From the NCBI GenBank assembly GCA_945878645.1, contig CAMCTW010000001.1:4778-68777 (forward strand): a stretch of 64,000 nucleotides of DNA, in the 5' to 3' direction. This DNA is from Bifidobacterium breve (GTDB taxonomy: Bacteria; Actinomycetota; Acidimicrobiia; Acidimicrobiales; Acidimicrobilacustridaceae). The position numbers and the translations under genes are program-made. The notes below the pieces were generated by a model. It ran no database searches and was not told the DNA's origin. It saw nothing but the letters and a program-made list of their open reading frames with translations. Shown here piece by piece: positions 4,367 to 60,950 of the stretch; positions within the stretch are counted from its first letter, which is position 1, and the number at the start of each line of letters is the position of its first letter.

Positions 4367-6010
4367 TCACTGTGTCACACGAGCATTGCTGAGAACACTG
4401 CGACCAGTCGGCCAGTCAGTTGGCCAACCTTGAGCCGACCACACCGCTGCCGCCGTGGCCGCGAAGACGGCATCGGACCCATTGACCGGCTCCGTATCTT
4501 CCTCGTGAAGCGTGACCTCGACATGCGGCATATCGGCAGAACGCAGCACACCGAATGAACGAATCGTCAGATCACTAATCATTCCGTCTTCATCAACCGA
4601 CAATCCTTCGCTGGTGACCCAGCCAAGCGCCATGTGCACTGCACCGATCGCGTACGAACGCAGAACGATGGAATCGAGTACTCGACCACATCGCAAATCA
4701 ACTCGCACGATGCCATCGGCACCCATCGAAACTGTGGCAACCGCCCCTTCGGCACTCGTCACCGTTGCGATGTGAGCATTGTTGTCGCCTGATTCACTCG
4801 CGTTCTTGGCGGCAAGCGCAGCAAGCAGGATCTGTGCTTCAACAACACCGGCTCCACGGATATCTACCGAGGTCGGTGGCCCAACAACGTCGACCTCTTC
4901 AACCATAAATTGCGGCGCAATGTTCGTAATCGCTTCGGCAATGCCTTCCGTGCGTGCGACACGAATTACACCTGAGCCATCGGCACGGACGCCCGCAGCA
5001 ATCGGTGGACGCTTGGGTCCGTCGCGCACAACGTCTTCTCGTGACAACACCACACGAATCGCTTGGCGATGTTCATAGGCAAGCTCACGAGCAACCTGTC
5101 CGACATCGGTGGTCAACTTTCCGCCAAATGCTCCGCCGTTGGCCAACGATGTGAACGGTTCCCCTCCGGGCTCACACCACGACGCGTCGGTTTCCAAATA
5201 GGCCGGTTCCACCCAACCGGTTCGCATCGTGAGTTCCCAGTCTCCTTCAGGAAGCTCAAGCGGCGGCTCTGGCGATGTGGTTCCGTGTCGCCCTTGCACC
5301 TTGCCCGCCAACGCACGAGCTTCGGTTAACGAACCGGCGACGACCCATCCGCCGGCTCCGTTGGGAACGGCGACTAACGCATCGAGCGGCGCCGTGTCTT
5401 CAGCGAAACCTCCACGCCCAAGCGCAACTTCGGCGGAAACCTGCTGCGCTGATCGGCCTTCGATCGTTGCCCGGCGCGATGCATCCTCGAAATTACGATC
5501 CTCGCGGCGTTCATGTTCCACAACCGAGGAACCGCTCACCACCATCGACCACGCTTCTCGGATTGTTTGCCACCCCGTGCATCGACACAGATGCGCTGCC
5601 AACGCCCGGTCGACTGCATCAAGATCATCAGCTGCTGTGTTTTTCGATCGTAAACCTTCAAGGCGACAAACGATGCCCGGCGTACAGAATCCGCACTGGC
5701 TGCCGCCGGTGGCCAGCAACGCGTCGGACCAACGTTCGCGATCTTCTTCCGCCAGTCCATCAACAGTCGTAATGACACGACCAGCAATACGACGAACTGG
5801 TGTTACGCATGAAACTCGTGGAGCGCCGTCGACCAAAACCGTGCAACAGCCGCATTGCCCCTGCGGATTACAACCCGCTTTGGGCGCACGAACTCCGAGT
5901 CGACCGCGCAATGCCGCCAACAACGACACGCCATTGTCGGGAACGCTCACTTCTTCGCCATCGACGAAGAACGTGATCTGAGGAATTTCGATTGAAGTTG
6001 GATCAGTCAT
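4367..6010 (-). CDS. 2x[2Fe-2S] domain fused to a strongly reduced xanthine/aldehyde-dehydrogenase-type molybdopterin domain
   Basis: GCNPQGQCGCC...VSC and QCGFCTPG...CRCTG Fe-S motifs; C-terminal half has EPAYLE, GGAFGGK, DIRGAG. Confidence 0.8.
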   Translation of the reverse strand: MTDPTSIEIPQITFFVDGEEVSVPDNGVSLLAALRGRLGVRAPKAGCNPQGQCGCCTVLVDGAPRVSCVTPVRRIAGRVITTVDGLAEEDRERWSDALLATGGSQCGFCTPGIVCRLEGLRSKNTAADDLDAVDRALAAHLCRCTGWQTIREAWSMVVSGSSVVEHERREDRNFEDASRRATIEGRSAQQVSAEVALGRGGFAEDTAPLDALVAVPNGAGGWVVAGSLTEARALAGKVQGRHGTTSPEPPLELPEGDWELTMRTGWVEPAYLETDASWCEPGGEPFTSLANGGAFGGKLTTDVGQVARELAYEHRQAIRVVLSREDVVRDGPKRPPIAAGVRADGSGVIRVARTEGIAEAITNIAPQFMVEEVDVVGPPTSVDIRGAGVVEAQILLAALAAKNASESGDNNAHIATVTSAEGAVATVSMGADGIVRVDLRCGRVLDSIVLRSYAIGAVHMALGWVTSEGLSVDEDGMISDLTIRSFGVLRSADMPHVEVTLHEEDTEPVNGSDAVFAATAAAVWSAQGWPTDWPTGRSVLSNARVTQ

Positions 6011-16432: not shown

Positions 16433-17332
16433 CTACGACGGTGACGCGGTGCGCGGTGCGTCGACCGATGAACTATCAAGGCCTCCACGCTCGCCTGCTT
16501 CCCATTCAAGAATCTCACGTTCGGTGAGATAGAGGCCCTCTTGATCGGCATTGTGGTGACGTGCCGCCCACCGAAAGAACAGCACACCGATAATTCCCCA
16601 GAGGTATGCCGCTTCAATCACTTTCATAATGAGGCCAGCAACCTCTTGATCGCTCTTCGCCGAGATCCCCCACAATCGAATGGGTTGGTCGTACGCGTCG
16701 TACACCACCGAATGAGAGAGCCACAGCCACGCCGCCGGAAGCGTGGGAAGAATTGATTGGGCAAACAGGTACACCATCTGACCTGGTATCGAGAGCCGCA
16801 GTTCAGGCCAAGGCCCGCAAACCGGCAACCACATGATGAGAGCAGTGACCACGAAAAGAATGTGTGCGGTGAAATGGAATGGCCCGTTCGATGTCGAGGT
16901 ATTCACGAACTGCGGCATATGACTGAGCATGTTGAACGAGTTGAACAACGCGAACGCCAAAATCGGAGTTGCGAGTACTCGAATAACTCGCCATAACCGC
17001 CCACCCGACGCCACGAAGAGTTCGGCCAACCACCTCGGACACGAGAGAAGAAAGAGTGGCGGGACAATCATCGTCAGCACAAGGTGCTGAAACATGTGCC
17101 CTGAATAAAGTCGTTGTTCGGCGATGTCATGAAGCGGCCACACCGACACCGCCGTCATAAAGGCAACAGCCAACCAAAAAGAAATGGCCTGACGTCTCGA
17201 CACCACCTGAGTGCCCGGCTCGACAACTTTCGGACCAATCACTTTCGCAACAAAGAGACCGCCCGCAACTACAGCAAGTACCAACCCCCAGACTTCCCAA
17301 TGGGCTGCGAAGGAGGGCATCGCTGAGAACAT
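16433..17332 (-). CDS. ctaG: Cytochrome c oxidase assembly protein (caa3 CtaG type)
   Basis: HMFQHLVL, HFTAHILF, DQEVAGLIMK; last gene of the oxidase operon. Confidence 0.85.
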   Translation of the reverse strand: MFSAMPSFAAHWEVWGLVLAVVAGGLFVAKVIGPKVVEPGTQVVSRRQAISFWLAVAFMTAVSVWPLHDIAEQRLYSGHMFQHLVLTMIVPPLFLLSCPRWLAELFVASGGRLWRVIRVLATPILAFALFNSFNMLSHMPQFVNTSTSNGPFHFTAHILFVVTALIMWLPVCGPWPELRLSIPGQMVYLFAQSILPTLPAAWLWLSHSVVYDAYDQPIRLWGISAKSDQEVAGLIMKVIEAAYLWGIIGVLFFRWAARHHNADQEGLYLTEREILEWEAGERGGLDSSSVDAPRTASPS

Positions 17333-17398: not shown

Positions 17399-17740
17399 CT
17401 AGAACCAAAAACGGAAGGTCGTCAACATCGCGAGGTACACAAGCATCGCAAGAACCAAGCCCGAATAAAAGATGCGAGTCAGGATCGGCTTGTCGAACTT
17501 CAGATGCATGAAGATGTACAGAATCGTGAAGAACTTCACGGCCATCAGGATCATGAGCACCGGGATCAGGAGTTCATCGGCCCAAATCGGAAAATCCGGC
17601 GCGGCATACGTGAAGACTTCGATGATGGTGAGAACCGCAAGGAAGATCGCGGTCAGGACATAGACCTTGTCGCGCGAATAGTCCTTGACTGCACCATCGA
17701 GGGCAGTGGTGGGGACGTTGTCATGTGAGGTGATGGTCAT
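17399..17740 (-). CDS. Cytochrome c oxidase subunit IV
   Basis: Three TM; LAVLTIIEV, KFFTILYIFMHLKFD. Confidence 0.85.
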   Translation of the reverse strand: MTITSHDNVPTTALDGAVKDYSRDKVYVLTAIFLAVLTIIEVFTYAAPDFPIWADELLIPVLMILMAVKFFTILYIFMHLKFDKPILTRIFYSGLVLAMLVYLAMLTTFRFWF

Positions 17741-17754
17741 GTGATGGTCCTCGA

Positions 17755-18390
17755 TCAGGTTGGGATGAGGTACACGACGGCGAAGATGACGACCCAAACG
17801 ACATCAACGAAGTGCCAGTACAGGCCGACGATTTCGACGGTCTCAGCCTTGTGTTCCGGAATCTTGCCCCGCAGCGATAAAAGCACGACCGAGACGAGCA
17901 TGATGATGCCGACCGTGACGTGGATGCCGTGGAAGCCAGTGAGTGTGTAGAACGCTGAACTGAATCGGCTGGTGGTAAACCCGAGACCTTCGCGAACGAA
18001 CACAGTGAACTCGTAGATCTGACCAGCCATGAATGTTGCACCGAGAACAGCAGTTGCGCCGAGCCAAACGCGCATGCGCTGATGCTCTCCACGCTCGATG
18101 GCCGAAACAGCCAACACCATGGTGAGTGACGACATGAGAAGAACGAACGACGAGGTCGACGTAAACGGAATATCGAAAATCTCTTGCGCGGTCGGACCTT
18201 CAAGCGGACGCCTGTAGAGCAGATAGGTGGTGATCAAGCCGCCGAACAGCAAGCACTCCGAAGCCAGGAACAACCACATGCCCAATTTGGTATTGGAGAT
18301 TCCGGTGTTGGTATCGGCATCGATGTGCGCGTGCGCCTGTTGCGCGTCGGCCGCGGCCAGCGTCGGGCGGGAGGTCAGCGACTCAGCCAA
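17755..18390 (-). CDS. ctaE: Cytochrome c oxidase subunit III
   Basis: WLFLASECLLF, TGFHGIHV, YWHFVDVVW. Confidence 0.95.
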   Translation of the reverse strand: MAESLTSRPTLAAADAQQAHAHIDADTNTGISNTKLGMWLFLASECLLFGGLITTYLLYRRPLEGPTAQEIFDIPFTSTSSFVLLMSSLTMVLAVSAIERGEHQRMRVWLGATAVLGATFMAGQIYEFTVFVREGLGFTTSRFSSAFYTLTGFHGIHVTVGIIMLVSVVLLSLRGKIPEHKAETVEIVGLYWHFVDVVWVVIFAVVYLIPT

Positions 18391-20398
18391 CGGTCTCGAC
18401 CTCTTTCACTCCGTCTGCGGAGTCGGAAACTGCGGCGTCGCCACCACCGGAGGCATGCGCCTCGGGGCCATGATCGTCGTGAGCCTTGTCGGGATCGTCC
18501 GGTGGTTCCATAATCCAGCCGTAAAGAGCAGCCACAACAACGATGCCGCCGATAAGCGCGAGCCAAAGGCTGAAGATGAGTCCGTAGGCCACGATCGGAA
18601 GGCCGAAGGCCAAAACGATCGGCCAATAGGACGGTGATGGAAGGTGAACTCCCTTGCCATCGTTGCGCTGCTGTGCGACCTCAGCCGTCGAGGCGATGCG
18701 CACGAGCTTGCCGTCCTTGGTTTCGCCATACTTGCGATACCAGAAGTCATCGACACGGGTAACTGTTGGGATTGGATCGAAGTTGTAGGCCGGCGTCGGA
18801 GACGGGACCATCCATTCGATTGTGCGGCTATCCCACGGGTCGGGACCGACCGGCGGAAGATTCTTGGCCTTCGACTTGCTATAGAAAATGTTGAAGATAA
18901 ACAGGGCGATACTGCTGGCAAGTGTGAACGCACCAATAGTGGCGACCTTGTTCCAGAATTCGAACCCGTAGCCGGCGTCATAGGTGTAAATACGGCGGCT
19001 CATGCCCTGAAGTCCGAGGACGTGCATCGGGGCGAAGGTGAGGTTGAAGCCAAGAAGCATCAGCCAGAAGTTGGCTTTACCGATGCTCTCATTGAGCATG
19101 TAGCCAAACGCCTTCGGCCAATAGAAGTAGAAGCCGCCCATGAATCCGAAGAATGCTCCACCAAAGAGCACGTAATGGAAATGGGCGACGATGAAGTAGG
19201 TATCGGTCTGCTGCGTGTCCATCGGGGAAACCGAGTGCATCACACCGGAGAGGCCACCGATGGTGAACATCGTGACAAGACCGATCGAGAACAGCATCGG
19301 CGCAGAAAAGTTCAACTTGCCGCCCCACATCGTGGCGGTCCAGTTCAAGATCTTCACGCCCGTTGGCACCGCGATGAACATCGTGGTGAGCGAGAACGCG
19401 GTCACCGAGATCGGCCCGATGCCGGACACGAACATGTGGTGGGCCCATACGCCCCAACCCATAAAGCCAATAGCGATACCGGAGAACACGATGAATGGGT
19501 AACCGAAGATCGGCTTGCGAGCGAAGGTCGGAAGGATCTCCGAAACCAGGCCAAATGCCGGGAGGATCATGAGGTACACCTCGGGGTGTCCGAAGATCCA
19601 GAACAAGTGCTCCCACAAAAGTGGGTTGGCACCCTTCGCAACGTTGAAGAAGTTTGCGCCGAACAAACGGTCAAGCATGAGCAGGACCTGCGCCGACGTA
19701 AGAACCGGGATCGCAAAGAGCAGCAAGAACTGCGAGACGAGTGCCATCCAGGTAAAGATCGGCATTCGCATAAGTGTCATGCCCGGAGCTCGCATGTTGA
19801 GCACCGTGACTATGAGGTTCACTGCACCGGTAAGCGAGGCGATACCGGTGATAATGAGACCAAGGTTCCAGAAATCAACACCATGGGTTGGCGAGAAGAC
19901 CACGCCGCTGTTTGGTGCGTACATGAACCAACCGCCGTCGGCACCACCACCCAGCAACCAACTTGAGTTGAGGAAAACGCCACCGGCCAAAAACGCCCAG
20001 AAACTGAATGCGTTGATTCGGGGAAACGCGACGTCGCGCGCGCCGATCTGCAACGGAATCAGATAGTTCGCAAACGCTGCACCAATAGGCATGACGACGA
20101 GGAAAACCATCGTCGTTCCGTGCATTGTGTAGACCTGGTTGTAGAGATTGGCACTGAGCAGTGATCCTCTGGGGGCCCACAACTGCATACGAATCAGTAG
20201 CGCCTCAGCGCCACCAATGATGAAGAAGAAAATTGCCGCGGCGCCGTACATAATGCCGATTTTTTTGTGATCGACAGTGGTGAACCATGAGCGCGGCCCG
20301 GTCTCGGCCGACGGACGCGTGAACACACCGGTGGGCGTGTAACCGTCGTTGGAATCACCCGAAGGAAGGGCGAGGGGGCGGTCTTCAGTTAGTGCCAT
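18383..20398 (-). CDS. ctaD: Cytochrome c oxidase subunit I (A1 type, C-terminal two-TM extension)
   Basis: TMHG, GARDVAFPR, WIFGHPEVY, WAHH, HFHY all intact. Confidence 0.97.
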   Translation of the reverse strand: MALTEDRPLALPSGDSNDGYTPTGVFTRPSAETGPRSWFTTVDHKKIGIMYGAAAIFFFIIGGAEALLIRMQLWAPRGSLLSANLYNQVYTMHGTTMVFLVVMPIGAAFANYLIPLQIGARDVAFPRINAFSFWAFLAGGVFLNSSWLLGGGADGGWFMYAPNSGVVFSPTHGVDFWNLGLIITGIASLTGAVNLIVTVLNMRAPGMTLMRMPIFTWMALVSQFLLLFAIPVLTSAQVLLMLDRLFGANFFNVAKGANPLLWEHLFWIFGHPEVYLMILPAFGLVSEILPTFARKPIFGYPFIVFSGIAIGFMGWGVWAHHMFVSGIGPISVTAFSLTTMFIAVPTGVKILNWTATMWGGKLNFSAPMLFSIGLVTMFTIGGLSGVMHSVSPMDTQQTDTYFIVAHFHYVLFGGAFFGFMGGFYFYWPKAFGYMLNESIGKANFWLMLLGFNLTFAPMHVLGLQGMSRRIYTYDAGYGFEFWNKVATIGAFTLASSIALFIFNIFYSKSKAKNLPPVGPDPWDSRTIEWMVPSPTPAYNFDPIPTVTRVDDFWYRKYGETKDGKLVRIASTAEVAQQRNDGKGVHLPSPSYWPIVLAFGLPIVAYGLIFSLWLALIGGIVVVAALYGWIMEPPDDPDKAHDDHGPEAHASGGGDAAVSDSADGVKEVETVG

Positions 20399-20440: not shown

Positions 20441-21661
20441 TCAGTTCAGCGTCTCGAGGAATGCGACCAGTTGGTCGATCTGCTCTTCAGTGAGGTTCAG
20501 ATTTGGCATGCCGCGTCCGCCCTGCGGATACATCGGCTTGAGTGCTGGTGCGTTGCGCAACCAAGCTTCCAGCGTCACACGGTTGACGGTTGCAGTATCG
20601 ACCTTGCCGCCCGTGAGTGCAGCGCCCGGATCGCCGGCAGCGGCAACATCGCTCATCAGTAATGGCGATCCGTCGGAACTCACCGGTTCATAGAGATTGA
20701 AGATTGATCCAACGAATGTTCCGCGGGTCATGAGATGCGTGAGATTCGGCGCTACGCCCGAGACAAGCGGAGGCGGCGTTTCCTTCATCTTGGCGTCATT
20801 AATTCCATTGATGACGTGGCACTGCGCGCAGAGTGACAGCCAGACTTTTTTGCCTTCAGCGGCAACGGGATCGGTGGGGTCCGCTGCGTGATCCTTCAGC
20901 TGATTCCGCACCCAACCGTCGTAGTCGCTGGTTGAAACAGCGCGCACAAGCATGCGCATATTGGCGTGAGAAAGGCCGCAGAACTCGGTGCACTGACCGC
21001 GGAAGACTCCGGGTTCATCTGCTTGCAGTTTGAGCGGGTTACGCAGTCCGGGAACAGCATCTCGCTTGCCGTTCAGGCCAGGAATCCAAAACGAGTGGAT
21101 GACATCGTTTGATGTGGTCGTGACCTGTATCGGCCGACCTGCAGGAACGACCATCTCGGTTGAGGTGGTGATGTCTTCGGGACCATCGAAATTGCCATCG
21201 TTATTGACGTCGTACTTGTACTGCCACCACCACTGCTGACCGGCGACCTGAACCTGGATGGAGTTGGGTTCCTCACGATTGAGATTAATGATCGTCAACA
21301 CCGTGCCGACAGCGATGCCAGCGAGGATGAGTGCGGGAAGAATCGTCCAACCAATTTCGAGAGTGGTCTTGCCGTGAATCTGCGACGGGAACTCGTCGGG
21401 ATCTGAGTCCTTACGCTCGCGGAATTTCCACGTGATGAAGACAATGGCGCCGATGACAAGAACAAAAACAATTCCCGCAATTGATGTCACGGGGATAACG
21501 AGCCGCTGAATGCTTTCCGCCGAAGGGCCTTCGGGAGCAAGAGAAGAAAGCGGCTTGCCGCTGTTTTGAAACGAGTTCACGATGAGTGCGGCAAAAAGCA
21601 CCACCACGACCGTGAACGAGATTACCGCAAGGATGCGGACAATTTTTGGAAGGCGCTGCAT
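20441..21661 (-). CDS. ctaC: Cytochrome c oxidase subunit II with fused cytochrome c (caa3 type)
   Basis: LEIGWT, DVIHSF, CTEFCGLSHANM (CuA), CAQCH heme c motif and distal GMPN. Confidence 0.95.
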   Translation of the reverse strand: MQRLPKIVRILAVISFTVVVVLFAALIVNSFQNSGKPLSSLAPEGPSAESIQRLVIPVTSIAGIVFVLVIGAIVFITWKFRERKDSDPDEFPSQIHGKTTLEIGWTILPALILAGIAVGTVLTIINLNREEPNSIQVQVAGQQWWWQYKYDVNNDGNFDGPEDITTSTEMVVPAGRPIQVTTTSNDVIHSFWIPGLNGKRDAVPGLRNPLKLQADEPGVFRGQCTEFCGLSHANMRMLVRAVSTSDYDGWVRNQLKDHAADPTDPVAAEGKKVWLSLCAQCHVINGINDAKMKETPPPLVSGVAPNLTHLMTRGTFVGSIFNLYEPVSSDGSPLLMSDVAAAGDPGAALTGGKVDTATVNRVTLEAWLRNAPALKPMYPQGGRGMPNLNLTEEQIDQLVAFLETLN

Positions 21662-21846: not shown

Positions 21847-22707
21847 TCACGCCGGGTTCCCGCCCCGGATCACAACGGGTGCCCCGGGGGCCACACCAAT
21901 GGCGCCTTCGGTGGTGTGAGCCGCTGGATCGTGATGTTCGATGTCGCGCTCTCCGATGACCGCGCCGGCAATGCCCGCAGCGACGATGGCGATAGCACCA
22001 AGAACCACGACCGCCGTCGTGACCCACTTGCCGGAAGAAGGCTTGAGCGCCAGAAGCACAGCGACAAGGAAGAAAAACAGCGCGACCAAGCCGAAGACCC
22101 AAACCGAACCGACCTTCGAGACCGAAAGAAGAACACGCGACAGGCCAATGGCGACCAAGCCGATAAGCAGGAGCGAAATGACCGGAACCCGGAACGGGTC
22201 AATGAAGCGGTGGTAGATCTCGGCGTTGGTGTGATCGTCGCCCGTGGCGCGCTCAGCCCATGTCCGCAGTGTCCAGGTGAAGGCCACGACCAACAACGTC
22301 GCAACTGCGGCGTACATCAGGCCGCCACTTTCGGTCGCAGCACCGATGAGAAGAAGAATAAATGCCAGAGCACCAAGGGCAGGCAGATAATTCACGCCCA
22401 CTGGAGCACGGGTCAGGGGCACTGATTCGGTATGCACGACCTGAGCTTCTGCCTCAGGATCAGCATCGCGAAACGCAATAAGCAGGCCCGCCAATGTGGC
22501 AGCGGCAACGGCCAGTCCCACGAAGATGGTGTAAGCGAAGTGATTTCCGATGCCACCCTTCCAGCCGAGGGTGAGCGGGCCCATCACGCGGTTTATCGGC
22601 GACTGGGTCTCGCTGGTGAATCCGCTAACGAACGCGGCGATCAGCGAGAAGGTCGCCAGACCGGCGAAAAACCGAAACGCTGTTGTGAACATCCGCGAGG
22701 AGAGCAT
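21847..22707 (-). CDS. Multi-pass membrane protein of unknown function
   Basis: About 7-8 hydrophobic segments; 6 nt downstream of the subunit III paralog. Confidence 0.8.
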   Translation of the reverse strand: MLSSRMFTTAFRFFAGLATFSLIAAFVSGFTSETQSPINRVMGPLTLGWKGGIGNHFAYTIFVGLAVAAATLAGLLIAFRDADPEAEAQVVHTESVPLTRAPVGVNYLPALGALAFILLLIGAATESGGLMYAAVATLLVVAFTWTLRTWAERATGDDHTNAEIYHRFIDPFRVPVISLLLIGLVAIGLSRVLLSVSKVGSVWVFGLVALFFFLVAVLLALKPSSGKWVTTAVVVLGAIAIVAAGIAGAVIGERDIEHHDPAAHTTEGAIGVAPGAPVVIRGGNPA

Positions 22708-22713
22708 GGCGGC

Positions 22714-23304
22714 CTACTTGGTGACGTAGATGGAGATCCAGATCAGGGCATAGACGGCAACCATCGCGTACCAAAAAACAGCGGCGGCGGTAATGCCATC
22801 GTGTTGGCGAGCAGTGAACTGCCCGCCGAGGGCCCGAAGGCCCATGAGGGCGACAAAAATCATCGCCAGCACCAGCATCACAATGTGTGCGCCGGTGATT
22901 GTGTAAATCAACACTCCCTGAATCCCTGAAGCGATATCGAGCTCCATGAGATACCAGAGATAGGTCGTCATGACGATCGTGGCGATACCCAACATGAGGG
23001 TGAGGCCCATCGCCAAGTAAGAGTTCACTCGATCGTTCTTGGCGATCGCAGCAACGGCCCACTGCATCGTGAAGACCGACATGATGAGCGTGATGAACAT
23101 CGTGTTGGGCTGCTGCAAGGGAATGGTGGCGCCCTCGGGCAACCACGCCGTACCCGAACCAACGACATCAACGCGTGCCGCAAGGTAGATACCGATCAGG
23201 CCGATGAAGACCGTGAACGATGCTGCTGCAGCAAACGCCGCGCCGACGACCAGCACGCGGGGGCGCTGAACTGCAGGAGCGGGGGGAAGGACGTGGGCGG
23301 TCAT
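22714..23304 (-). CDS. Degenerate heme-copper oxidase subunit III paralog
   Basis: Aligns by eye to CtaE (YTITGAH, FWY) but lacks the SE, HGxH and WHFVD conserved residues. Confidence 0.8.
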   Translation of the reverse strand: MTAHVLPPAPAVQRPRVLVVGAAFAAAASFTVFIGLIGIYLAARVDVVGSGTAWLPEGATIPLQQPNTMFITLIMSVFTMQWAVAAIAKNDRVNSYLAMGLTLMLGIATIVMTTYLWYLMELDIASGIQGVLIYTITGAHIVMLVLAMIFVALMGLRALGGQFTARQHDGITAAAVFWYAMVAVYALIWISIYVTK

Positions 23305-23306
23305 GC

Positions 23307-24869
23307 TCAGACCTCCTCATCGAGCAACGGCTCGGGCGAACGGACAATTGCGAGGTCACCGAAATTACCGGTGGGCGGTGGAGAGGGACAGGCCCATTCG
23401 AGGGTCTGGCCCGTGCCCCATGCATCGGCGGCGGCTTCGGGGGCACCTTTACGAGCGCCGCTAAGAAGACCGAGAAGGGCAAGTGCTCCGCCCAAGGCGA
23501 GCAACGCGCACCCGATCGACGAAACGATTACGAGAGAATCATGAGCGCCTTCGAGGCCGGTGAAGCGATTCGAGAAGCCCAGCACACAAAGCGAAAGTCC
23601 GCCAAGGGCTCCGCCCCCGAGCAGGACGAGAACGTTGAGCTTGCCTAAACCGTCGGCCGAATGACCACCGGTCATTTTCGGACCCCAATAACCAATACCC
23701 GCAGCAGCAGCAGCGAGCGCAGCAGCAATGGCGAGAACGTATTGGCCGGCGGCAAAGAAACCAGAGACACGAAGTTCAAGCGGGGTGATCGCAAGCAATG
23801 CTCCAGCAAGCACGGCCAACAAGGTCAAGAGCAGCGACACGACAGCGAGGCCGAGCGGGCTCTTCAGGGAAGGCTTGCCGTCTTTGAAGGCTTTGGCAAC
23901 GCCGCCGAAAAACAACAGGGTAGGAAGCAGCATGAGAAGCCCCATGGCCTGCCATACGAGATCGTCCGAGGCCGAGGGGTAGATGGCGGGCTGCGCCCAA
24001 GCGCCAACACTAAGAACCCCGAAGGCGCCAATGGCGAGCAGAAGAATGTTGCGCTGACCGAGGCGGGCGCCGGTCAGGGTGGCAATCACATCGGCGACGA
24101 TACCGAGGCCAGGAATCAAGAAAGCGTAGATCTGTGGCTCGTAAGCGATCCACAACACCTGATCGAACTGAATGGCGCCAGCACCGAAGGTCGTGCCTCC
24201 GTTGTAGCGGTGGTCGACCCAAATCAGCAGCAAGTTGGCGAGCAACACCGGCAACGTGAGCAACCAGATCGCTCCGCCGACGAGCATCGAGAACGAGAAC
24301 ATCGGGACTCGGTCGAGCGTCATGCCCGGCGTACGAAGTGTGACCGCGGTTGTGAGCACACAAACGGTGCCGAGAAGCAACGCAACGATCAGACCGCCGA
24401 GGGCCATGAGCGTGAGGCTGACGGACTTTTCGCGCGAACCGCCGAAGCCACCGTCGATGAACGACGCAACAATAAAGACGCCCGACGAAAGCAACCATGT
24501 CCACATCGCGGCAGCAGCTGCACGTGGGAACGCAACCGTGCTTGCACCGACCTGCAACGGAACGATGTACGTGCCAAGGCCAAGGAACAGCGGCACAATC
24601 ACCAATAAAATAAGGCCCAAATTCGAGGTTTGGCCCAGTTGCATTGCTGTCGAACCGCTAAGGAAGGAATTGGATCCGACCTCGTGTCCGAGAGAAAGCG
24701 CTGCGGCAACCCAACCAGCGATTCCGAAGACCAACGCGGCCAACACGTAGAACGTGCCAACGGCTTTGTGGTCACCGGTTCCGAAGATGGTGAGAGGGCT
24801 GGGTACGACGGAAGGGGCGACCGCACTTGCGTCGGTACCGGTTTCCGGTCGGGTATCGGTTAGAGCCAT
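23307..24869 (-). CDS. Heme-copper oxidase subunit I paralog lacking the metal-ligand histidines
   Basis: DHKAVG, PLQVGA..VAFPR, LRTPGMTL.RVPMF, YWGPKMTG, TLEW..PSPPP..NF scaffold motifs are retained; the His ligands are absent. Confidence 0.85.
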   Translation of the reverse strand: MALTDTRPETGTDASAVAPSVVPSPLTIFGTGDHKAVGTFYVLAALVFGIAGWVAAALSLGHEVGSNSFLSGSTAMQLGQTSNLGLILLVIVPLFLGLGTYIVPLQVGASTVAFPRAAAAAMWTWLLSSGVFIVASFIDGGFGGSREKSVSLTLMALGGLIVALLLGTVCVLTTAVTLRTPGMTLDRVPMFSFSMLVGGAIWLLTLPVLLANLLLIWVDHRYNGGTTFGAGAIQFDQVLWIAYEPQIYAFLIPGLGIVADVIATLTGARLGQRNILLLAIGAFGVLSVGAWAQPAIYPSASDDLVWQAMGLLMLLPTLLFFGGVAKAFKDGKPSLKSPLGLAVVSLLLTLLAVLAGALLAITPLELRVSGFFAAGQYVLAIAAALAAAAAGIGYWGPKMTGGHSADGLGKLNVLVLLGGGALGGLSLCVLGFSNRFTGLEGAHDSLVIVSSIGCALLALGGALALLGLLSGARKGAPEAAADAWGTGQTLEWACPSPPPTGNFGDLAIVRSPEPLLDEEV

Positions 24870-25049: not shown

Positions 25050-25946
25050 TCAGAGACCCGACCGAACCAGTTGGTCGAGGGCCATTCCGGCGAACAGCAA
25101 CGTCACCCAAGTGATGGAAAAGGTGAACAGGCGCATGGCTCGTGCTGTGGTCGGATCGCGCAGTAATTGCACGGACAAAAAGGTGAAAAACCCGCCCAGC
25201 CCCGCGGCAAGGACCCCATAGATCCATCCCATATCGCCCACGGGGATGAAGGCAATCGTGAGGGCCCAGACGATGAGGGTATAGATGAGGATCCGAATGG
25301 CTGTTTCGTGACGAGAAACCACTGACGGGAGCATCGGAACATTGGCCGCCGTGTAGTCCTCTTCGTAGCGAATGGCCAGAGCCCAGAAATGGGGCGGGGT
25401 CCAGAAGAAAATGATGGCGAAAAGCAGCACGGGAGCCCAGGCCAGCGAATTGGTCACTGCTGACCAGCCGATAAGCACCGGAGCAGCGCCTGCGGCGCCG
25501 CCGATCACAATGTTGCTGCTCGAGGTGCGCTTCAACCACAGCGTGTAGATGAAGACATAGAACAGGCAGGCAGCCACGGCCAGCACGGCACTGAGCAGGT
25601 TCACAAAGGCCCAGAGCCACATAAAGGCCACGACTTCGAGCCCAATAGCGAAAATCAAGGCGTTTCGGGGCTTGAGAAGCCCAGTCACCAATGGCCGGTT
25701 GCGGGTCCGCCGCATGAGGGCATCGATATCTCGGTCGACATACATGTTGATGGCGTTGGCGCCACCGGCCGCGGCGGTGCCGCCGAGGACAGTCGCCACC
25801 ATCAGCCACCACGAAGGGAGACCCTGCTCGGCCACGATCATCGTGGGCACGGTCGTGATGAGCAGAAGCTCGATAATGCGAGGTTTTGTGAGGGCTACAT
25901 ACCCGCGCAATCGCGCAGCGAGGGGTGGTTGCGCGACCGATTCCAT
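25050..25946 (-). CDS. ctaB: Protoheme IX farnesyltransferase (heme O synthase)
   Basis: LTKPRII, DRDIDALMRRTRNRP, YTLWLKR, FWTPPHFWAL. Confidence 0.95.
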   Translation of the reverse strand: MESVAQPPLAARLRGYVALTKPRIIELLLITTVPTMIVAEQGLPSWWLMVATVLGGTAAAGGANAINMYVDRDIDALMRRTRNRPLVTGLLKPRNALIFAIGLEVVAFMWLWAFVNLLSAVLAVAACLFYVFIYTLWLKRTSSSNIVIGGAAGAAPVLIGWSAVTNSLAWAPVLLFAIIFFWTPPHFWALAIRYEEDYTAANVPMLPSVVSRHETAIRILIYTLIVWALTIAFIPVGDMGWIYGVLAAGLGGFFTFLSVQLLRDPTTARAMRLFTFSITWVTLLFAGMALDQLVRSGL

Positions 25947-26070
25947 CGGGCCTGATGCTAGGGGTCTAGGTCCAGAACCGGACAATCGGGACGGCAGCCA
26001 ACCCCGGCTCCACACAGCGCTGGGCCAGTGGGGTTGGGGAAGCCGGAGTCCACTCCCGTACCATCGACCC

Positions 26071-26985
26071 GTGCGATTGCCTCGACTCTCCCCTCGGGCC
26101 TATCGGCGCATCACCCTCGTGGCCCTGCTTGCGCAGGTGTTCATCACCGTCAGCGGCGCCGCCGTCCGCCTGACCGGGTCGGGACTCGGATGCTCCGATT
26201 GGCCAACGTGTGAAGACAACCGCATCGTCGCGCCCTTCGAGTATCACGCCATGATCGAGTTCGTGAACCGCACGGTCACCGGTTTGGTGTCGGTTGCGGT
26301 CATCCTCGCGGTGCTTGGTTCCTTACTTCGCAACCCTCGGCGCCGAGACCTCACATGGCTATCGCTTGGACTTGTCGGAGGTGTGATCGCTCAGATTGTT
26401 CTCGGTGGACTCACGGTGTTGTTCGAACTGCAACCGCCGTTCGTCATCGCGCACTTCGTGGTGTCGATGGTCTTGATTTGGAACGCGTTCGTTCTTCACG
26501 AACGTTCGAAGTACGCGCAATCTCCGGCGCTACCTGTTGTTCCTCGAAACGTCCGCATCCTCGGTCGCCTTCTTGTCGTTGTATCTGCCATCACGATCTT
26601 CACTGGAACAATTGTTACCGGCACTGGTCCACATGGCGGTGACGAAAACGCGAAGCGTCTTTTGTTCGACATCACCACTGTTGTGCGCATTCATAGCGGC
26701 GCTGTGTGGCTCTTCCTTACACTCACGATCATCACGCTTTTTGTTCTGCATCGAACCGGCGCTCCACGTGGAGTTGACCGACGCGCGAAGTATCTCGTCG
26801 GCGCAATCGTCTTACAGGGAGCGATCGGCTACATCCAGTACTTCAACGGAGTACCGCCAGGCCTTGTAATCATTCACGTATTCGGCAGTGTCGTCGTATG
26901 GATCGCTGCACTGGCATTTGATCTCTCGCTCATCGCGCGACCCCTTGAGATCGAGCCAACTGACAAGTTCGCCTCGACGTCATGA
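26071..26985 (+). CDS. ctaA: Heme A synthase
   Basis: [31 protein letters not shown]; GTG 6 nt after TACCAT. Confidence 0.92.
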
Positions 26986-60032: not shown

Positions 60033-60950
60033 ATGGAACAGACGTTCCGCCAAGGAGCAGATTCCCCTGGCAACTGGGATCTTGTTCGTGACTATTTGGA
60101 TTGGTGCGCCGACGTGCGCCACCGTTCGCTCACAACGGTCAAGACTTACGCCGACTGTCTCGGTGCCTGGCTAAAGCACATCGGAACTTCAGACATCCGC
60201 ACGATTAGCCGATCTGAAATGGAATCATTTGTGACTCGTGTCCGAGTTCGCCGAGGTCATGGGCTCATCGGCAAACCCGCCACACAACGCAAAGACGTGG
60301 CTGCATTAAGGGCCTTCTACAAATGGCTCGAAGAAGAAGCTGAGGTTCACGTATCGCCAGCACGCGCGCTCCACGGGCCTGTCGTGCACAACGTGAATCC
60401 AAAACCAATTCCAGACAATGACTGGGCCGAACTGTGGGACTCAGAAATGAGTCCGCAGTTACGCTCAGCACTCGGACTTGGCTTCTTCTGTGGACTTAGA
60501 CGACAAGAAATCTTCTCTCTCACATCAGCACAAATAACTGTTTCCAAGGTCAGTGACATGACTAGAAAAGGCGGCGGCAAACACACGCTCCCGTGGCGCG
60601 AGATGTACGAGATTCTCGTCGAATGGAATCCTGCACTCGATCACCAAGGACGATTCCCTGAGGCCCTCAGGGTCGCCTCTAGGGCGTCTCAAGGGCTACT
60701 GCTTGCACCATGGCCCACTGATCCTCAAACACTTAATAAGCGAATGCTGAAGTTGTGTCAGTCAATCAATTCAAAGTCATACACACCGCATCAGTTACGC
60801 CACAGCGCTGCCACGAACTTGCTACGAGCAGGTGTTCCCTTGCACATGGTGTCGGCGCTGCTGAACCACAGCAGCCCAACGATCACTATGCGCTACGTAA
60901 AAGCGACGGGCGACGAACTCGCAGAATGGAGACGACAGCGGGGACTGTGA
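60033..60950 (+). CDS. Tyrosine recombinase/integrase
   Basis: SAM-like N-terminus (TVKTY), GLRRQE, RKGG, PHQLRHSAAT, LLNHSS, TMRY. Confidence 0.93.
   Translation: MEQTFRQGADSPGNWDLVRDYLDWCADVRHRSLTTVKTYADCLGAWLKHIGTSDIRTISRSEMESFVTRVRVRRGHGLIGKPATQRKDVAALRAFYKWLEEEAEVHVSPARALHGPVVHNVNPKPIPDNDWAELWDSEMSPQLRSALGLGFFCGLRRQEIFSLTSAQITVSKVSDMTRKGGGKHTLPWREMYEILVEWNPALDHQGRFPEALRVASRASQGLLLAPWPTDPQTLNKRMLKLCQSINSKSYTPHQLRHSAATNLLRAGVPLHMVSALLNHSSPTITMRYVKATGDELAEWRRQRGL

Follow-up and report, generated by a model that had tools for sequence, protein, structure and literature searches.

The caa3 oxidase operon in the 64,000-nucleotide stretch of DNA analysed here (the window) carries, between ctaB and ctaC, three consecutive genes, psD, psE and psF (21847-24869, Table 1), which on the evidence of their sequences are a real, selected and cofactor-free copy of the membrane core of complex IV. 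Since the same operon is complete for a working caa3 enzyme, two membrane cores are encoded side by side, one working and one without a subunit II. The subunit I of haem-copper oxidases is usually taken to be always catalytic, and the psD family breaks that assumption. We put at about even the chances that the trio serves as a structural adaptor which connects the working caa3 oxidase with a complex III of the b6 type. The first-pass annotation of this DNA had pointed to psD as a single paralogous reading frame; the gene is as described there, but the unit comprises three genes, and its two partners had been missed.

Table 1. Location of the dead trio, the surrounding caa3 operon and the related genes discussed in the text
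Feature	Location	Strand	Description
psD	23307..24869	-	A-family subunit I paralogue of 520 aa without ligands; 12 membrane helices predicted
psE	22714..23304	-	5-helix subunit III (CtaE) paralogue, 196 aa; Pfam COX3, E 3.8e-13
psF	21847..22707	-	286 aa, 7 predicted helices; CtaF-like N-half and 3-helix C-half
ctaB	25050..25943	-	UbiA-family haem O synthase by position; Pfam UbiA; 180 nt upstream of psD
ctaA	ORF 25672..26985	+	haem A synthase; Pfam COX15-CtaA; divergent; true start probably inside ORF
ctaC	20441..21661	-	subunit II of caa3 type: CuA domain plus fused cytochrome c
ctaD	18383..20398	-	intact subunit I, all ligands; TIGR02891 over cut-off; two extra C-terminal helices
ctaE	17755..18390	-	subunit III of the working enzyme
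COX4_pro	ORF 17399..17797	-	prokaryotic subunit IV
ctaG	16433..17332	-	Caa3_CtaG assembly factor
split b6-type complex III operon	G000:C128:780-4916 (L043, L048)		4Fe-4S ferredoxin gene upstream; APWY Qo motif
cupredoxin-ending subunit II	L113:8641-9843; L115:8827-9900; L116:2464-3510		active aa3-type oxidases; a type-1 cupredoxin stands in place of the cytochrome c of caa3
CcoN-cupredoxin fusion	L091:6593-8722 (G050)	-	ligand-less CcoN-like subunit I, 3-helix anchor and type-1 cupredoxin

A subunit I without haem or copper ligands

The psD reading frame runs through 520 codons without an internal stop, and its product matches Pfam COX1 with 119 bits against a cut-off of 34.8. It shares 27% identity with the intact CtaD encoded 2.9 kb downstream, the only other COX1 match in the genome, which is 83% complete. 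In multiple alignments all six His ligands of CtaD are replaced in psD, namely those of CuB (H271>E244, H320>Q293, H321>P294), the low-spin haem pair (H93>S82, H408>V378) and the high-spin haem ligand (H406>Q376), and the acids of the D channel (D122>T111, E273>Q246) and the Lys of the K channel (K349>F320) on which A-family O2 reductases are recognized have gone as well. The helix VI Tyr is retained (Y275 of CtaD, Y248 of psD), its cross-link His partner being lost. The enzyme would also have no subunit II of its own: the operon holds a single ctaC, outer loop 3-4 of psD is shortened to 12 residues from 26 in active enzymes, and the Arg pair R468/R469 is lost. The Mg-site His and Asp have gone too. 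As all 74 active subunits I aligned together with psD retain the six His, the loss is no alignment artefact. The absence of the six His and the D-channel acids from an intact COX1 paralogue that keeps the Tyr, all claimed beforehand by eye, is thus borne out by the reading frame, Pfam and the alignments alike; the individual losses read off at that stage also stand, but the register in helix X was one residue off, there being no His either way.

No His, Met or Cys of psD falls in any ligand column of the alignment, and the only such residues conserved throughout the family, H34 and M183, are loop residues common to CtaD. Because every haem and copper ligand is lost, psD is, as judged from its sequence, unable to act as an oxidase. 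An enzyme active with substitute ligands in the manner of NO reductases might be suspected from E244 and Y248 in helix VI, but the former is Glu in just 9 of the 22 genus sequences, no haem His is present, and gNOR is described, in the accessible part of its report, as the first family replacing even one active-site His (10.1101/2021.10.15.464467). Together with decay to a pseudogene (see below), this reading is already largely refuted, and we give it scarcely any weight. The haem-copper fold itself is kept: the AlphaFold2 model of psD has 12 helices (pLDDT 87.8, pTM 0.90) and superimposes on CtaD with a TM score of 0.85, and the best rows in a Foldseek search are the CtaD proteins of Corynebacterium and Mycobacterium (TM 0.84-0.85); Thermus caa3 follows closely.

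The partner genes and the operon

psE starts 2 nt past the psD stop, and psF 6 nt past psE. The N-terminal half of psF is homologous to CtaF (subunit IV) by alignment of profiles (hhalign probability 98.6, E 6.9e-16), while Pfam PF12270 matches psF only weakly (3 of 10 proteins, E 0.014-0.27). Its C-terminal half is a three-helix module which elsewhere bears a type-1 cupredoxin, a domain absent from psF of the window, and which is encoded alone in caa3 operons outside the order, in other classes too, with the type-1 motif in 26 of 26. The psF profile also matches the two extra C-terminal helices of the working CtaD. The structure model of psF has seven helices; Foldseek returned nothing for it at E<=0.001, its top three rows being non-significant matches (E 0.12-0.14) to chains of 139-143 residues from actinobacterial III2IV2 supercomplexes. 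Complex prediction for the psF C-half with CtaD, the CtaC helices and CtaE scored 0.06, which is uninformative either way. Stand-alone three-helix proteins with two tandem cupredoxin domains were seen in the caa3 operons of L123, L125 and L126.

The position of ctaB is conserved across loci, and the CuA and CxxCH columns of ctaC are invariant in the alignment. A scan for promoters and terminators gave signals at chance level. As to other terminal oxidases, the genome carries a cytochrome bd subunit I gene (G000:C75:130-1428, with a second short match at C108:6630-6785), and cytochrome bd was found in two of five genomes tested. Elsewhere in the window, a minus-strand ORF at 4367-6010 appears to join a 2Fe-2S domain to a shortened molybdopterin-binding region, and the segment 59925-63891 holds a tRNA-Gly, after which come an integrase-like ORF (60033-60950) and two nuclease-like ORFs, which seem to resemble a restriction-type nuclease and an exonuclease/BRCT protein; it may be the edge of an island.

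Distribution, selection and expression

psD is present in 23 of the 24 genomes of the genus, never with an internal stop and once as a partial copy at a contig edge; in the remaining genome, ctaD lies at the start of a contig. The gene order of the trio recurs in 13 of the 16 genomes read from other families (of the rest, one has too short a contig and two have another oxidase type) and in 40 further loci as far as their contigs extend. Outside the genus, where the distribution rests on psF as the marker of the trio, full-length psF was found in 49 of the 61 genomes of the order and in none of the 139 genomes of other orders among 200 genomes of the class, and a tally over 300 genomes of the phylum, including four unpublished ones without a full psF match (G235, G279, G346 and G317), returned full-length matches from the same order only. 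A few genes at the oxidase loci are split over two frames, possibly by sequencing errors (psF of L025; ctaD of L026, L027, L098 and L117; ctaC of L026).

Among 22 genus sequences the median dN/dS (Nei-Gojobori) is 0.16 for psD, 0.17 for psE and 0.16 for psF, as compared with 0.10 for ctaC, 0.07 for ctaD and 0.06 for ctaE; for psD, 178 of 231 pairs had dS of 0.05-1.5, the pairs are not independent, and the maximum among them is 0.72. The psD ratio is about twice that of ctaD, which would suit a gene in decay, but the frames are unbroken in all 22 sequences and the ratio is far from 1, so that psD does not behave as a pseudogene. The proposal that it is a selected, cofactor-free pseudo-enzyme has therefore held up, given its intactness across the genus and the kept fold. 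Contigs from the four river and freshwater RNA runs analysed, of 24 listed, cover parts of psD and psE, those of three runs bridging the boundary between the two genes. This cover is consistent with expression but is no proof of it, because DNA carry-over is possible; a neighbouring 20-kb stretch is patchily covered too (20, 16, 18 and 27 of 30 bins), and hence provides no silent control.

Conserved surfaces of psD

When conservation in psD is expressed relative to 49 active enzymes, helices 3-5 and cytoplasmic loop 2-3 stand at 0.88-0.90 (0.88-1.08 with the C-tail), helices 6 and 8-11 are relaxed at 0.56-0.63, and low values are found in outer loops 1-2, 5-6, 7-8, 9-10 and 11-12 (0.47-0.67) and in cytoplasmic loop 6-7 (0.44). 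In solved oxidase structures helices 3-5 carry subunit III, whereas helices 8-9 and the outer loops carry subunit II. With the former kept and the latter relaxed, psD seems to be built for psE and psF rather than for CtaC, and an earlier suggestion of an assembly placeholder, taken as one for subunit II, is weakened, the subunit II face being the least conserved part of the protein.

The same pattern bears on several other roles. The trio could be an assembly factor of caa3 that transiently holds a subunit, a lipid or a cofactor-delivery protein (CtaA, CtaB or CtaG) and is absent from the mature chain. Such a role would suit the setting of the trio (ctaB and ctaC on its two sides, ctaG further along the operon), the thioredoxin-like (apparently TlpA/ResA-like) gene found between psF and ctaC in three loci (L032:8537-9232, L034:5228-5836 and L036:9723-10448), the type-1 copper domain of some psF proteins, which could deliver copper, and the deep members of the psD family, which could hold haem A. 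We nevertheless regard it as unlikely, since the subunit II face and the outer loops are the least conserved regions, psD of the window has no haem ligand, and other orders have the same caa3 operon without the trio. Replacement of Surf1 by the trio was considered and rejected, Surf1 being found in all five genomes tested, which also counts against an assembly role in general.

That the emptied haem pockets bind lipid, quinone or gas, so that the trio senses or buffers it, might be read from a preference for Gln where three of the His once stood (58, 87 and 46 of 128 homologues) and from the Tyr, retained in 58 of 128, but the former ligand positions vary widely and the helices around the pockets, 6 and 8-11, are the most relaxed; this is improbable. 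Repurposing of psD as a proton or ion channel, one of the roles put forward at the outset, has in its favour that the oxidase fold has three pores in known enzymes. It is very improbable nonetheless, because the D-channel Asp and the K-channel Lys are missing from all 55 operon-linked psD proteins and the Glu is retained in only five; the conserved polar residues lie mostly in cytoplasmic loops, and a conserved polar track is absent. A scaffold would appear to be the best of the three roles proposed earlier for psD.

Graded loss of ligands and a copper-bearing branch

The ligands have not been lost to the same extent throughout the family: of the six His, 35 of 54 relatives of psD keep none, nine keep one, six keep two and four keep three. 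Purifying selection among the homologs was foreseen correctly by the first-pass annotation, but uniform loss was not found, as the low-spin haem pair persists in a deep branch. At most one CuB His is left in each of the 55 operon-linked psD proteins, whereas the low-spin pair is retained in eight of the 54 relatives, four of which also have the high-spin His. Of 150 matches in the library 21 were left out by length and one as an active enzyme with three CuB His; among the remaining 128 homologues, 76 are without any of the six His, and both low-spin His occur together in 18 against 6.8 expected.

The C-terminus of psF varies as well. A type-1 cupredoxin (His, Cys, His, Met) is present in 5 of 54 genomes, a long ligand-free domain in 23 and a short tail, as in the window, in 26. 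The low-spin haem pair is found in all five psD proteins paired with a copper-bearing psF and in 3 of the 49 others, and four of the five copper-bearing genomes have kept the high-spin His together with an Arg at the first CuB His. In the psE tree these five genomes fall on a single branch (90/62) and so count as about one event; in quick trees they have short paths to the active enzymes. In psD of L029, L031, L032 and L066 Arg takes the place of the first CuB His, and His that of the second Arg of the propionate-binding pair. The psF tails of family f7 (L035, L064, L067 and L070-L088) have a C-terminal domain of about 150 residues without type-1 copper ligands; most of them contain Cys residues, and that of L035 has no Pfam match.

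Because the deep branch keeps the low-spin haem His and the type-1 copper domain, these sequences suggest that a redox relay turned into a scaffold by stepwise loss, the order of which we infer as follows. An aa3-type core would have lost CuB first; the CuB-less core would then have held the type-1 copper domain and the low-spin haem as an electron relay; and most lineages, including that of the window, would finally have lost the relay cofactors and kept the scaffold. A state with haem ligands and without CuB is otherwise that of an assembly intermediate, according to the portion available of PMC9145763, and the haem-retaining branch would be a natural form of it.

Origin of the trio

In the trees psD and psE fall outside the caa3 clades, each as a single well-supported group, although the subunit I trees were made by a quick method and the psD rows in them are long-branched and of odd composition. 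Tandem duplication of the neighbouring ctaD was considered as the source and rejected, as a grouping of psD with ctaD of the same order fails the AU test (p=0.004); groupings of psD with all caa3 CtaD (p=0.21) and of psE with caa3 CtaE (p=0.275) are tolerated. The N-terminal similarity between psD and CtaD that had been noticed at first is real, but it is no sign of local duplication, since the active aa3-type CtaD of relatives starts similarly. The best NCBIfam scores are to cyt_aa3_Actin for psD, by a margin of 4 bits, and to aa3_CtaE_Actin for psE, its sole match (E 5.9e-10), both far below the cut-off. The comparison favours an aa3-type CtaD/E/F core as the probable source of the trio, because the 12-helix D, the separate CtaF and the D-E-F order are as in active operons (L113-L117, L119 and L120). 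The cupredoxin of the subunit II proteins of L113, L115 and L116 is the top BLAST match of four of the five copper-bearing psF tails; a sister relation of the active C-D-E-F oxidases to psD has no support either way in the trees.

The link to complex III and a second dead subunit I

The genome encodes a split b6-type complex of ferredoxin, b6, subunit IV, Rieske protein and cytochrome c, and its Qo motif has been reported for Ilumatobacter (PMC4122944, in part), as has a split cytochrome b for Ilumatobacter coccineus. Within the order, split b6-type cytochrome b is found in all 49 genomes with full psF and in none of the 12 without psF, five of which were read and have an actinobacterial aa3 oxidase in place of caa3. 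This co-occurrence follows the splits between lineages, and since complex III and caa3 go together it does not tell which of the two is the partner of the trio. It has been described for the III2-IV complex of M. smegmatis that the main contacts are made through CtaE and CtaF (PMC8361435), and 10.1101/2021.06.16.448340 agrees on the division between CtaE and CtaF, as far as the available text of both goes. In G048 an active C-D-E-F oxidase adjoins the b6c genes.

A second, unrelated dead subunit I exists in other orders. The CcoN-cupredoxin fusion of L091, whose three-helix cupredoxin module is the one known from psF, lies directly upstream of ctaC, with a b6 gene about 5 kb away, and such fusions are common to nine clusters (P0275-P0283). 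Of 16 CcoN-like rows aligned, the 13 non-canonical ones (five of them fusions) are without the CcoN His motifs. Searched with an alignment of this group, 62 of the 139 genomes of other orders give a match and none of the 61 of this order does, many of the matches being within about 3 kb of the b6 gene; the genome counts are family matches, and ligand loss was read in the aligned rows only. Stand-alone CcoN-like proteins without the His ligands also occur (P0291, P0295, P0284-P0288 and P0293), among which P0291 and P0295 appear to make up a group of their own.

In the arrangement that we favour, the adaptor, psD, psE and psF would assemble into a trimer that copies the membrane core of the oxidase but is redox-silent, as is suggested by their homology and by the conservation of psD helices 3-5, on which subunit III sits in solved structures. 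Docking to complex III would be through psE and the CtaF-like part of psF, because CtaE and CtaF make that contact in the mycobacterial supercomplex, and the three-helix half of psF would tie the trio to caa3, because this module is encoded alone in the caa3 operons of other orders. Several points count against the adaptor: the trio is located in the caa3 operon and not in that of b6c, the working caa3 has a subunit III of its own, the mycobacterial contact is with full-length QcrB and not with a split b6, and an adaptor is not generally needed, as many genomes of other orders hold b6c and caa3 without a dead subunit I. Indeed, 18 of 19 other-order loci (L089-L107) have none at the caa3 locus, and none of the 36 genomes of families f31, f35, f38 and f43 has a CcoN-like match. 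The trio might instead partner caa3 only, as a IV/IV* pseudo-dimer or as a regulator of the working enzyme (stabilising or titrating it), without any role at complex III. Its co-location with the caa3 genes and the occurrence of the psF C-half family in caa3 operons across several classes would fit, but the retention of the CtaE/CtaF pair, the known docking face for complex III, and the dead CcoN beside the b6c genes would be left unexplained, and we think this quite unlikely.

With the adaptor as the preferred reading, a broader proposal, to which we give somewhat less than even chances, is that the Acidimicrobiia twice retired a terminal oxidase (aa3 CtaD/E/F here, cbb3 CcoN elsewhere) to a scaffold between b6-type complex III and caa3, the A-family version grading from a CuB-free relay of haem and type-1 copper to a cofactor-free trimer, and the product being a III-IV supercomplex with a dead complex IV in it. 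If the adaptor is true, complex IV has a structural role that stands apart from electron transfer and from proton pumping, which is relevant to the debate on the purpose of supercomplexes. In databases the homologues of psD and of the CcoN-like proteins are named as oxidases, several of them as cbb3-type, so that oxidase counts and inferences of oxygen affinity may be wrong for freshwater and other environmental bacteria.

Comparison with known systems

We found no published description of the trio in a literature search to which subscription journals, bioRxiv supplements and the supplementary tables of surveys did not belong, and it is not described in the parts available of PMC8361435, PMC9145763, PMC8239418, PMC4122944, 10.1101/2020.03.01.968255, 10.1101/2021.06.16.448340 and 10.1101/2021.10.15.464467. 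The closest known system is the actinobacterial aa3 core CtaD/CtaE/CtaF of the bcc-aa3 supercomplex (PDB 7qhm, 7q21, 6hwh and 8hcr), with which the trio shares a 12-helix subunit I, a separate 5-helix CtaE and CtaF. The trio differs from it in lacking haem and copper ligands, proton channels and a subunit II of its own, in the fusion of its CtaF to a three-helix module, in its location in a caa3 operon and in the split b6-type complex III of the genome. The Acidimicrobiia, like other deep Actinomycetota, also have active C-D-E-F aa3 oxidases, with the D-E-F order near ctaB and ctaG as in the trio; these keep their ligand motifs and a subunit II. The NO reductase and NO dismutase families share with psD the fold and altered active-site residues, but their haems and most of their His are still in place, according to the accessible part of 10.1101/2021.10.15.464467, whereas psD of the window has lost all six. 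In archaeal supercomplexes of cytochrome b/Rieske and oxidase modules, a membrane-anchored blue copper protein mediates the transfer between modules (PMC4122944, in part), which is similar to the role that a copper-bearing psF may have had, but no dead oxidase core is described there in that part, and psF of the window has lost the copper domain. Non-catalytic paralogues kept for structure have a precedent. ActF of alternative complex III is such a core membrane subunit, but it is one subunit of unrelated fold inside one enzyme, whereas the trio is a three-subunit copy of an oxidase core.
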